A stretch of 3,166 nucleotides of DNA from a virus (IMGVR_UViG_2513020041_000003); one strand, 5' to 3'. Shown: positions 1 to 3,166, counted from the first letter of the stretch. The notes: generated from the letters alone by a model not told the origin. Program-made: numbers and translations.

Positions 1-144
1 GCTGCTTATCTGTCTGATAGTGTTAACCAGTTGCGTGCCGAAGCAAAAAAATATGCCATACGCAAACCCGCTGATGAGCGGGTTTTGTGCTTTAAATGGG
101 GCAATGGTAATGTTGAATCTCATCCCGGGACTCATGTCTGTTAA
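1..144 (+). CDS. Rz-like i-spanin C-terminal coding fragment, 5' end outside the window (or a remnant copy)
   Basis: Nt 1-20 are identical to nt 3147-3166 and in the same codon phase as the Rz ORF at the 3' end. Translation from nt 1 reads AAYLSDSVNQLRAEAKKYAIRKPADERVLCFKWGNGNVESHPGTHVC*, which is coiled-coil-like at first. The frame reads through a terminator-like hairpin at 64-93, so the true coding end is uncertain and may be near nt 63. Confidence 0.4.
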   Translation, partial: AAYLSDSVNQLRAEAKKYAIRKPADERVLCFKWGNGNVESHPGTHVC

Positions 145-163
145 CTTATTATTTAGCTGGTGA
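2..163 (+). CDS. Rz1-like o-spanin lipoprotein frame (lipobox and mature region), 5' end outside the window or a remnant
   Basis: The +1 frame relative to Rz encodes LLICLIVLTSCVPKQKNMPYANP..., with lipobox L-T-S-C (Cys codon 32-34) and a Pro-containing mature region. This continues the signal-peptide start [18 protein letters not shown] found at 3112-3166. Downstream of ~nt 63 the frame crosses the hairpin and becomes hydrophobic, so the end is uncertain. Confidence 0.4.
   Translation: MLICLIVLTSCVPKQKNMPYANPLMSGFCALNGAMVMLNLIPGLMSVNLLFSW
64..93 (+). terminator. Terminator-like hairpin, plus-strand orientation
   Basis: Perfect 9-bp stem AAACCCGCT (64-72) / AGCGGGTTT (77-85) with loop GATG, followed by the T-rich stretch TGTGCTTT. 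It lies inside the formally open spanin frames. Confidence 0.45.
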
Positions 164-378
164 CTTGGTTATTTGCCTGATGTTTAAAATGTTTTCTTCC
201 AGTACAATGTCCCTAAACACAATGAGTCTGCTTATTATATTATTAGCAGAGCTATTACGGCCAAAGTACAGCATAAGCTTTTAAAGCCAATCAACCAGTC
301 ATCAAGACAGACGGGGTTATTCATAAAAACTCTCCATGTGTGATCCGATGGGGCCTGAAATTAAAGCTTTAATATAGC

Positions 379-591
379 TCATGAAAGGTAAACATTGGCA
401 GCTGAAGGGCCACGCAGACCATTTATCCGGCAAAATTCCACGCGTAATCCGGTGGTAATTTCTTCTGCATCGCGGAGATTGAGCGCTGAAACATGAAGCT
501 GGACATCGATACGACCATCGGATGGGGTGATAAGACCCTTGCCGCTTTTGCCGTCAAAGGTTTTGACAATTCCTGTCATTTTACGGGACAA
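379..591 (-). CDS. cspF: Cold-shock protein, CspF/CspH subfamily (70 aa)
   Basis: The 70-aa product has the cold-shock-domain hallmarks ([14 protein letters not shown]-terminus, [20 protein letters not shown]-terminus). The apparent start codon is TTG at 589-591, preceded by AAGGA with a 6-nt spacer and an in-frame TAA four codons upstream. The first ATG is 4 codons downstream (577-579). It is divergent from cspB, as I recall for Qin. Confidence 0.85.
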
Positions 592-891
592 AAAAATTCC
601 TTAATACTGATAACTTGGCGCACTATACACACGTTCCTGAAGAAAGCTATAGTTTTTTGATGGGGTTGAAGATGGCTGGATGTCTAAAATAAACATTGCT
701 TCATATGTTCAACTATGCGTTAATGATTGCGTCGGTTTGAAGAACAGACGATATACGAAGTAGTTTACTAAAGCAGTTCTCATTTCAGGTGTTATTCACT
801 TATTCCTTCTTTGAGTCTCTCCAATTAAGTACGAAGTCGTTTCTGTTATGCAAACCATTTATGCCGAAAGGCTCAAGTTAAGGAATGTAGA
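592..891. promoter_or_regulatory. Divergent cspF/cspB control region (promoters and long 5' UTRs, not mapped precisely)
   Basis: A 300-bp AT-rich intergenic region lies between the two divergently transcribed csp genes. Both genes share the ribosome-binding context TTAAGGAAT about 6 nt before the start codon. Csp-family mRNAs are known to have long 5' UTRs. No confident -35/-10 assignment could be made. Confidence 0.35.
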
Positions 892-1107
892 ATGTCAAAT
901 AAAATGACTGGTTTAGTAAAATGGTTTAACGCTGATAAAGGTTTCGGCTTTATTTCTCCTGTTGATGGTAGTAAAGATGTGTTTGTGCATTTTTCTGCGA
1001 TTCAGAATGATAATTATCGAACCTTATTTGAAGGTCAAAAGGTTACCTTCTCTATAGAGAGTGGTGCTAAAGGTCCTGCAGCAGCAAATGTCATCATTAC
1101 TGATTAA
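892..1107 (+). CDS. cspB: Cold-shock protein CspB-like (71 aa, CspA family)
   Basis: ATG start at 892 with AAGGAA (880-885) 6 nt upstream. The product [38 protein letters not shown]... carries the RNP1-like KGFGFI and RNP2-like VFVHF motifs of the CspA family. Confidence 0.92.
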
Positions 1108-1218
1108 AATTCATCGCTCGTCTGTATACGATAACGAAGAAGGCTGATGCCTGAGTAGAGATACGGACAGAGTAGTGAATATTGGATCTCTTTAATAAAA
1201 AGTAAGGAGGTCCAATAC

Positions 1219-1254
1219 ATGAAACAATGGCTAGCATATTTGGCAAAATCTTAA
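1219..1254 (+). CDS. Candidate 11-codon small ORF (MKQWLAYLAKS) behind a consensus Shine-Dalgarno
   Basis: TAAGGAGGT at 1203-1211, an 8-nt spacer, ATG at 1219 and TAA at 1252. No homology is recognised. It could be a leader peptide, a small protein, or a chance motif. Confidence 0.2.
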   Translation: MKQWLAYLAKS

Positions 1255-1388
1255 TCAGGAAAAGTATGCTAACCATTGTGGTGAAGTGCAGGTTTGCTGC
1301 ATGAATAGTTTTACAGCAGAAGCTAACTGCTGGCATGGCAAAACAAAGTGCGTAAGTGGATGACTCCCACAAAAAGCACCACAATCTC

Positions 1389-1416
1389 AAACCCGCTCAG
1401 GCGGGTTTTTTATTAT
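1389..1416 (+). terminator. Rho-independent terminator, probably bidirectional
   Basis: Stem AAACCCGC (1389-1396) / GCGGGTTT (1401-1408), loop TCAG, then a T-tract TTTTTTATTAT on the plus strand. On the minus strand the same stem is followed by TTTGAG, a weaker tract. It sits between the cspB-side unit and the convergent zinc-ribbon ORF. Confidence 0.7.
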
Positions 1417-1470
1417 CTGCTTTAAATATATTATTAAAATATAAAAAATACTTGTTACTAATAAAATCAA

Positions 1471-1641
1471 TCAGGCTACAGCTTTAAGATTTGTCTGGAA
1501 TACTTTGTTGCAATGAGGGCAGATCAAAAGGGCACCTTTTTGTACTCTTGAAAAACTGTGTTCTGACTCTTGGGTGCAGTTTGGGCAGGAACATTTAACG
1601 AGATAATTACGGCGTGATTTTGAGTTTTTACGTTCTGACAT
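1471..1641 (-). CDS. Small C4 zinc-ribbon protein (56 aa; alternative 73-aa form from ATG at 1690-1692)
   Basis: MSERKNSKSRRNYLVKCSCPNCTQESEHSFSRVQKGALLICPHCNKVFQTNLKAVA has CxxC-x18-CxxC and a basic N-terminus. The internal ATG (1639-1641) is preceded by AGGAAAAG with a ~7-nt spacer, whereas the upstream ATG lacks a good SD and adds a hydrophobic 17-aa extension. It may correspond to a small putative zinc-binding protein annotated in K-12 Qin (ynfU, if I recall correctly), but I cannot verify that. Confidence 0.55.
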   Translation of the reverse strand: MSERKNSKSRRNYLVKCSCPNCTQESEHSFSRVQKGALLICPHCNKVFQTNLKAVA

Positions 1642-1860
1642 AGGCTTTTCCTGTATAAATGGCCGTATACAGTACACTAAATATGAAAACATTTCTCGTA
1701 TTATTATTTTATATATGACTTTCTTTCAAAATAATTACCCACATTTTTAATGTGTATGTTTTTTTAGCGCCGTTGAGAACAACGTGTGCTGTCAAAACTA
1801 CCCCGTAGACTCCGATCTTTTCAAACATATTGCACCATCCGTGTACATCGGGGTGAGGAT

Positions 1861-2076
1861 ATGAAATCAATGGATAAGTTAACAACAGGTGTTGCCTATG
1901 GCACATCGGCGGGTAATGCTGGTTTCTGGGCATTGCAGTTACTCGATAAAGTAACTCCGTCACAGTGGGCTGCAATCGGTGTGCTGGGTAGCCTGGTTTT
2001 TGGCCTGCTGACGTATCTGACAAATCTTTATTTCAAGATTAAAGAAGACAGGCGTAAGGCTGCGAGAGGAGAGTAA
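1861..2076 (+). CDS. essQ: Class II pinholin, phage 21 S-type (71 aa) with dual-start motif
   Basis: N-terminus MKSMDK gives two in-frame starts (Met1 at 1861, Met4 at 1870), as in the S21 antiholin/holin pair. It has two predicted TMDs ([19 protein letters not shown], Gly/Ala-rich; [23 protein letters not shown]) and a charged C-terminal tail [24 protein letters not shown] purine tract lies immediately upstream. The gene name is by remembered synteny with K-12 Qin. Confidence 0.9.
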
Positions 2077-2080
2077 TCCA

Positions 2081-2388
2081 ATGACTCAAGACTATGAACT
2101 GGTTGTGAAAGGAGTCCGTAATTTTGAGAATAAAGTTACGGTAACTGTAGCCTTACAGGACAAAGAACGCTTTGACGGTGAAATTTTTGACCTGGATGTC
2201 GCCATGGACCGTGTTGAAGGAGCTGCGCTGGAGTTTTATGAGGCAGCAGCCAGAAGGAGCGTCCGGCAAGTCTTCCTGGAAGTAGCAGAAAAATTGTCAG
2301 AAAAAGTTGAGTCTTATCTGCAGCATCAGTACTCCTTTAAGATTGAAAATCCTGCCAATAAGCACGAGCGTCCTCATCATAAATATCT

Positions 2389-2392
<4 letters not shown>
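2081..2392 (+). CDS. ydfR: DUF1327-family protein (YdfR-like, 103 aa), function unknown, inside the lysis cassette
   Basis: ATG at 2081 lies 4 nt after the holin stop, with AGAGGAGAG 7 nt upstream. The product is acidic and soluble with no TMD. Its stop (TGA 2390-2392) overlaps the endolysin start (ATG 2389-2391) as ATGA. The position between essQ and rrrQ matches what I recall of Qin. Confidence 0.85.

Positions 2393-3166
<774 letters not shown>

Follow-up and report, generated by a model that had tools for sequence, protein, structure and literature searches.

The divergent cspF-cspB gene pair of the Qin prophage and the probable UUG start of cspF

Two cold-shock-domain genes lie upstream of a phage holin gene in the 3,166 nt stretch of DNA analyzed here (the window), and one of them appears to begin with TTG instead of ATG. 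The locus thereby raises the question of where translation of this gene is initiated, and whether a non-ATG start on what an earlier note on this DNA called an RNA-chaperone gene could be a translational control point.

Identity and genomic setting of the gene pair

By direct BLAST, positions 64-3166 of the window are 100% identical, with zero mismatches, to NC_000913.3 (E. coli K-12 MG1655) in reverse orientation, and the two genes are cspF and cspB, whose home is the K-12 feature annotated as 'cryptic prophage Qin'. The cspF gene (b1558, NP_416076.1) spans 379..591 on the minus strand including the stop codon, corresponds to NC_000913.3 1641855..1642067 with 100% identity and encodes a protein of 70 aa. 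The cspB gene (b1557, NP_416075.1), which is also 100% identical to K-12, spans 892..1107 on the plus strand and encodes a CspA-type protein of 71 aa from an ATG codon. As the RefSeq cspF is a 213 nt CDS whose first codon is TTG (window 591-589), the finding re-describes two named reference genes, start codon included. The gene, its TTG start and the paired arrangement are the standard reference annotation of E. coli K-12, and are already known and ordinary.

The reference annotation gives the gene order in Qin as quuQ(ydfT)-ynfS-cspF-cspB-ynfU-essQ-ydfR-rrrQ-rzpQ. In phage orientation, cspB is read along late transcription and cspF, ynfS and ynfU against it. The ynfS gene (b4750; 235..324, minus strand), which encodes a small protein of 29 aa (Pfam YnfS, 80.9 bits), lies 54 nt downstream of cspF on the same strand. 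The interval between cspB and the holin is occupied by ynfU (b4776; 1471..1641, minus strand), encoding a small zinc-knuckle protein of 56 aa (Pfam YnfU, 107.3 bits) that has been described previously (10.1101/511675). The lysis cassette starts with the holin gene essQ (1861..2076, plus strand; PF04971, 116.7 bits) and continues with ydfR (2081-2392), rrrQ (2389-2922; PF00959, 84.5 bits) and rzpQ (from 2919); all these genes are annotated in K-12.

The cspF and cspB genes are divergent, with a gap of 300 bp between their 5′ ends. The earlier note had described them as back to back upstream of the holin; their adjacency and upstream position hold, but the two genes are oriented head to head and ynfU intervenes before the holin. 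The same note took the pair for cargo (a moron) in the Q-to-S interval, with Q itself out of view. This reading holds because the pair is placed between Q and the holin both in K-12 (quuQ to essQ) and in phage 2H10 (Q-cspF-cspB-holin), and quuQ indeed lies just outside the window, 106 nt past position 64.

K-12 strains match the region 300-1200 of the window at 100% identity. Of the 5,426 complete E. coli genomes, 1,611 contain 80% or more of this region, and in nearly all of these the identity is ≥95%. Besides this variable presence, the pair is found in another context, by the integrase, in phage PHB10. Among 185,579 species genomes, close CspF/H matches were confined to the Enterobacteriaceae, comprising Escherichia/Shigella, Citrobacter, Salmonella, Klebsiella, Enterobacter and others. 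The CspF/H gene is paired divergently with a CspA-type gene across a gap of 284-303 bp in 20 of 26 intact loci, and the Salmonella and Klebsiella copies stand alone. E. coli-type sequence was also found in a Mucilaginibacter sp. MAG bin (L018), which carries an intact cspH-cspG pair, and in a Veillonella parvula MAG bin (L028), which carries a decayed cspF-like copy beside cspB; both contigs are probably mis-binned or contaminants.

The two proteins and their expression signals

The assignment of the two genes to different subfamilies in the earlier note agrees with the family models. The cold-shock domain PF00313 (cutoff 27) is found in CspF with 77.8 bits, beginning at residue 5, and in CspB with 109.1 bits. 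CspF matches the NCBIfam CspF model NF012007 at 160.4 bits (cutoff 111) over residues 1-70 of 70, whereas CspB matches the CspA subfamily model NF007679 at 144.3 bits (cutoff 130). As CspF does not reach the cutoff of the CspH equivalog NF012008 (129.5 bits against 141), the protein is CspF and not CspH. The cspF gene is under purifying selection, with 0.93, 0.71 and 3.89 parsimony changes per site at codon positions 1, 2 and 3, respectively, among 22 distinct loci.

The RNA-binding motifs RNP1 (KGFGFI) and RNP2 (VFVHF) are intact in CspB. In CspF, RNP1 (SGKGLI) and RNP2 (VQLHV) are degenerate, and its alignment with CspA gives the substitutions W11T, F18K, F20L, F31Q and F34V, so that five of the aromatic residues of the CspA RNA-binding surface (W11, F18, F20, F31 and F34) are missing. 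The lack of these residues has been reported (PMC6719143; PMC9947658), and CspF fits the motifs of clade V, in which RNP1 is SGKG[FL]I, RNP2 is VQ[VL]H[IV] and aromatic residues are few (PMC6719143). Moreover, CspF and CspH accumulate upon overproduction without an effect on the tested Csp target RNAs (PMC11648934; PMC9765468). Because the five aromatic residues are missing and overproduction is without effect, the label 'RNA chaperone', under which the earlier note had listed cspF, is doubtful and in our view not justified.

Published accounts of cold induction disagree. Only CspA, B, E, G and I are cold-induced according to one report (PMC6719143), whereas another, citing ribosome profiling, counts CspF and CspH among the cold-induced proteins too, and reports cspF to be cold- and urea-inducible (PMC9947658). 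The cspF transcript is plausibly expressed, since YnfS, whose gene lies immediately downstream on the same strand, has been seen as a tagged protein, and strong Onc112 and retapamulin peaks mark its start (PMC6001520; 10.1101/511675).

Upstream of cspB lies a 5′ untranslated leader of the cspA-thermoregulator type of about 161 nt (731..891, plus strand). The match to Rfam RF01766 extends over 731-1123 and covers model positions 1-428 (158.8 bits, gathering score 78, E = 8.5e-43). A leader of this type implies a dedicated promoter for cspB. A putative promoter at 696..724 (plus strand), composed of a -35 element TTGCTT (696-701), a TGn motif (716-718) and a -10 element GTTAAT (719-724), ends 7 nt upstream of the start of the RF01766 model at 731, and we take it to be the cspB promoter by analogy with that of cspA.

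No Rfam RNA family overlaps cspF or its leader on either strand at E ≤ 1, and a cspA-type leader for cspF was ruled out, the Rfam match being limited to cspB. Conservation points to a putative -10 box TATAGT for cspF at 622..627 (minus strand): the sequence GTATAGT occurs at a nearly constant distance in all CspF/H loci, which belong to five genera, and the leader of cspF would therefore be only about 25 nt long. The sigma-70 consensus scan of the window called neither csp promoter, and the positions given here for both are placed by conservation and analogy only.

Downstream of cspB, the consensus scan marked a terminator-like hairpin AAACCCGCTCAGGCGGGTTT followed by a T run (1389..1408, plus strand). 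A near-identical hairpin is located at 67-86 (plus strand), immediately past Q, at the place expected for a terminator of the late operon; in both hairpins, AAACCCGC-loop-GCGGGTTT precedes T-rich sequence. The stretch of 280 nt from cspB to the terminator-like hairpin contains, at 1203-1254 (plus strand), a perfect Shine-Dalgarno sequence TAAGGAGGT, a 7 nt spacer and an ATG that opens an 11-codon ORF (MKQWLAYLAKS, then a stop codon), which is unannotated in K-12. Qin-like prophages and phage 2H10 also carry this ORF, but with amino-acid changes (MKQWPAYLAIT), and because of these changes it is doubtful that the ORF is under coding constraint. A small gene like ymcF or ynfQ, which follow cspG and cspI, respectively, was considered downstream of cspB and rejected, as no similarity was found.

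The start codon of cspF

The TTG codon at 589..591 (minus strand), which is the RefSeq start, is preceded by the Shine-Dalgarno sequence UAAGGA (598..603, minus strand). The latter forms a 6-bp duplex with the anti-SD sequence at -6.1 kcal/mol and is separated from TTG by the 6 nt spacer ATTTTT (597..592). In cspB, the Shine-Dalgarno sequence is likewise UAAGGA (879-884, plus strand), with the same duplex energy of -6.1 kcal/mol and a spacer of 7 nt to the ATG. The first three bases of the cspF Shine-Dalgarno sequence constitute the in-frame TAA (603..601) that the earlier note had seen four codons upstream of TTG, and no in-frame start codon lies in between. The rival start is the internal ATG encoding Met5 (577..579, minus strand). 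It is 18 nt away from the Shine-Dalgarno sequence and is left with only a clipped anti-SD duplex of -3.8 kcal/mol at the 13-nt limit and no other SD-like match within 3-13 nt. The spacing thus favours TTG (6 nt versus 18 nt), as had been argued before.

A common RBS context of the two genes had also been pointed out. The 9-mer TTAAGGAAT is present in exactly two copies in the window, at 604..596 (minus strand) and 878..886 (plus strand), compared with 0.05 expected by chance. As a distinct regulatory motif it was rejected: across loci only the AAGG/AGGA core is retained and the flanks differ, for example AGTAAGGAAT in cspH and TGAAGGAAGT in cspG, so that TTAAGGAAT is just an ordinary Shine-Dalgarno sequence in an A/U-rich context, possibly homologous between the two genes. 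RNA structure masking the cspF start was rejected as well, since the leader and the first 60 nt fold no better than shuffled sequences (z = -0.58).

For comparison across species, a scan of one genome per species (the 185,579 species genomes) retrieved 30 CspF/H loci. Together with two phage loci and the window, they include 26 intact copies, which represent 22 distinct sequences. Escherichia contributes E. coli, E. albertii, E. ruysiae, E. whittamii and others, and the rest are from four Citrobacter species, two Salmonella subspecies, two Klebsiella species, Enterobacter, two other Enterobacteriaceae and the phages 2H10 and PHB10.

TTG is found at the homologous start position in all 22 distinct loci. 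There are zero parsimony changes in this codon and in the AGG core of the Shine-Dalgarno sequence, and the spacer between them varies (ATTTTT, ATTTGT, TTTCTAT, TATTTAT, AAATAT and others) with up to five changes at one site. Codons 2 and 3 vary mainly at their third positions (TCC/TCT for Ser and CGT/CGA for Arg), the exceptions being Klebsiella (TTC CAA) and a degenerate-looking copy in S. arizonae (TGT), and codons 4 (AAA) and 5 (ATG) are invariant. The coding-type pattern of substitutions begins at TTG. At the equivalent position, the divergent CspA-type partner starts with ATG in 13 of 13 distinct loci. The four frameshifted copies (L027, L028, L031 and L033) have CTG at the start in two cases, have lost the first codons in one and keep TTG in one. 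In 5,389 E. coli genomes (6,721 places), no exact match was found for an ATG or GTG allele replacing the TTG of cspF or cspH; the best matches of these queries all carried at least one mismatch.

The protein sequence read from TTG is consistent with these results. The alignment of the MSRK N-terminus of CspF with the Csp consensus, on which the earlier note had relied, is borne out, as MSRKMTG corresponds to MSNKMTG of CspB, CspG and CspI and to MSGKMTG of CspA, with M1, S2, K4, M5, T6 and G7 invariant. The comparison with the K-12 start regions that it had proposed gives the same picture: cspF is annotated from TTG, and cspH has the same layout. We found no N-terminal peptide or start-site profiling value for CspF or CspH in searchable papers and supplements, and the case for TTG is therefore a comparative one. 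On this basis, initiation of cspF translation at UUG is by far the best reading and very probably correct.

Taking the locus as a whole, we are confident, short of certainty, that it is best explained as the Qin cspF-cspB cold-shock cargo module with cspF starting at UUG. The two cold-shock-domain genes would form a dispensable cargo module lying between Q, the late antiterminator gene, and the lysis cassette. The cspB gene would be expressed from its own promoter with a cspA-type thermosensing leader of about 161 nt and an AUG start, and would be followed by the terminator-like hairpin. The cspF promoter, predicted to lie about 95 bp from the likewise predicted cspB promoter and to face the opposite direction, would provide a short leader, in which UAAGGA 6 nt upstream would position the 30S subunit at UUG (591-589) in vivo. 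Initiator tRNA would read UUG, and CspF would thus begin with Met-Ser-Arg-Lys, matching the N-termini of other CspA-family proteins. The UUG start is conserved throughout the CspF/H clade and ancestral to it, and most likely keeps translation below the level that AUG would give.

Whether TTG is kept by selection can be judged from the four-fold degenerate sites, which have undergone about 5.2 parsimony changes each across the tree of CspF/H loci. By our own rough estimate, about 2-2.6 T-to-A or T-to-G changes would therefore be expected at a neutral site, and the probability of seeing none is about 0.1. The argument that selection has kept TTG in preference to ATG is only moderate, suggestive but not conclusive.

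It is unlikely that UUG acts as the translational control point suggested in the earlier note, a dedicated regulatory switch that would couple CspF/H synthesis to the level of IF3, to ppGpp or to temperature. No structure is associated with the cspF start region, and our estimate of about P = 0.1 makes the statistics for selection on TTG modest, but TTG is retained in every lineage although one transversion gives ATG, and the partner gene of the module always has ATG. Non-AUG mRNAs were more sensitive than AUG mRNAs to nutrient limitation and ppGpp in vitro (PMC5499595). In the same study, however, the UUG mRNA, assayed in vitro in an optimized context, behaved like the AUG mRNA at 20-40°C, and UUG was the non-AUG start least affected by ppGpp (PMC5499595). 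AUG, GUG and UUG are the three canonical start codons, initiating at 10-100% of the AUG level (10.1101/063800). Given these published measurements, the simple setting of a lower level is likelier than a dedicated temperature switch. Quite improbable is the further-reaching idea that a weak UUG start has been selected as the defining feature of the CspF/H clade, and that CspF/H, being deficient in RNA binding, is a low-dose modulator gated by its start codon, which phages would for this reason spread together with the AUG-initiated CspA-type partner with which it almost always forms a fixed divergent module. If true, this modulator would act on the partner or on the cold, stringent or another stress response.

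We consider it very unlikely that cspF instead starts at the internal ATG (579-577) to produce a protein of 66 aa, with TTG and the next three codons forming a conserved untranslated leader. The ATG is a canonical start codon that is invariant in 22 of 22 CspF/H loci, and the Pfam domain of CspF begins at this very Met residue; Met5 is, however, also invariant in CspA, CspB, CspG and CspI, whose ATG start sits four codons earlier, where cspF has TTG. The 12 nt from TTG to ATG change like codons, as most substitutions there fall on synonymous third positions, and the spacer between the Shine-Dalgarno sequence and TTG is free to vary; the sole Shine-Dalgarno sequence lies 18 nt from the ATG, as described above, and both RefSeq and the NCBIfam models have the 70-aa form. 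The GenBank record of phage PHB10 does annotate its cspF-like gene (L035 3001-3213) from the internal ATG with 66 aa. In that phage, TTG is conserved 12 nt upstream together with an SD-like AGGAAA, and the annotated start is probably mis-called. Because the ATG is as invariant as TTG, conservation alone leaves room for some initiation at the ATG. The use of both starts, with UUG giving the 70-aa form and an SD-independent AUG5 giving a 66-aa form without Lys4 as a second N-terminal proteoform, is highly improbable: both codons are invariant, the A/U-rich start region without significant structure (z = -0.58) favours ribosome access, and Lys4 influences which targets CspA-type proteins choose (PMC11648934), but the conservation of Met5 is accounted for by that in the whole CspA family and the Shine-Dalgarno spacing is unfavourable for AUG5.

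With UUG as the preferred start, the present comparison makes a modest addition to the annotation, namely the contrast between the unchanging TTG of the CspF/H clade and the ATG with which the paired CspA-type gene starts in every case. The coding boundary at TTG can help to correct records that start at the internal ATG, such as that of phage PHB10. The true N-terminus of CspF/H and its design with a short leader and a weak start are also useful background for students of these proteins.

Comparison with known csp loci

The closest known system is the cspF-cspB pair of K-12 Qin itself. The sequence over window 64-3166, the CDS boundaries and the gene order from ynfS to rzpQ are all the same, and no difference falls within the finding; the one exception is the way in which bases 1-63 of the window are joined on. 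These bases are foreign to the cspF-cspB neighbourhood, and the window as a whole is collinear with no genome. Bases 1-20 repeat bases 3147-3166. Bases 1-63 carry on inside rzpQ, after which the sequence switches, at 63/64, to a site located 106 nt downstream of quuQ. The window reads as a 3,146-bp circle or as a tandem-duplication junction of the segment from cspF to rzpQ. There is no microhomology at the 63/64 junction, and searches of the 5,426 complete E. coli genomes, of viral contigs and of metagenome contigs did not find this junction.

With respect to cspA and its thermosensing leader, the two members of the pair differ. The cspB locus matches the whole RF01766 model and keeps RNP1 and RNP2; unlike cspA, cspF lacks the RF01766 leader and five of the aromatic RNA-binding residues.

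In K-12, the divergent cspH-cspG pair (b0989/b0990) is paralogous to cspF-cspB, with about 77% nucleotide identity over a region that runs from the CspF/H gene through the intergenic gap into the 5′ portion of the partner. Like cspF, cspH has a TTG start, a TAAGGA Shine-Dalgarno sequence, an upstream in-frame TAA and a TATAGT box at equal distances, its start region reading TAA GGA ATT TGT TTG TCC CGT AAA ATG, and its partner cspG starts with ATG like cspB. The two pairs differ in that the intergenic gap is 285 bp in cspH-cspG and 300 bp in cspF-cspB, and that cspH-cspG occupies a chromosomal locus by IS1D and gfcA with no recognizable prophage around it. Furthermore, cspG is followed by ymcF-ymcE-gnsA, whereas in Qin such a set follows cspI and not cspB. 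The arrangement cspG-ymcF-ymcE-gnsA parallels cspI-ynfQ-ynfR-ynfN-gnsB in Qin, which is split there from cspF-cspB by the lysis cassette. From this parallel, it seems that chromosomal cspH-cspG is itself what remains of a prophage, or else a rearranged copy. The zinc-ribbon-like proteins of 62 aa encoded directly after cspI (ynfQ; L002 2257-2445, minus strand) and cspG (ymcF; L003 2685-2873, plus strand) have Ile as the first residue; ynfQ and ymcF are therefore annotated with a start of the AUU/AUA type, which is rarer than the TTG of cspF.

Among phages, the csp pair of PHB10 (MK524177.1) is more distant and adjoins the integrase. Phage 2H10 (NC_049950.1), a complete lambdoid phage of 46 kb, differs from the decayed Qin prophage in being a full phage genome and in having another gene between the holin and the lysozyme, but it carries the genes in the order Q-cspF-cspB-holin-lysozyme-Rz, and its CspF, annotated from TTG, is 98.6% identical.
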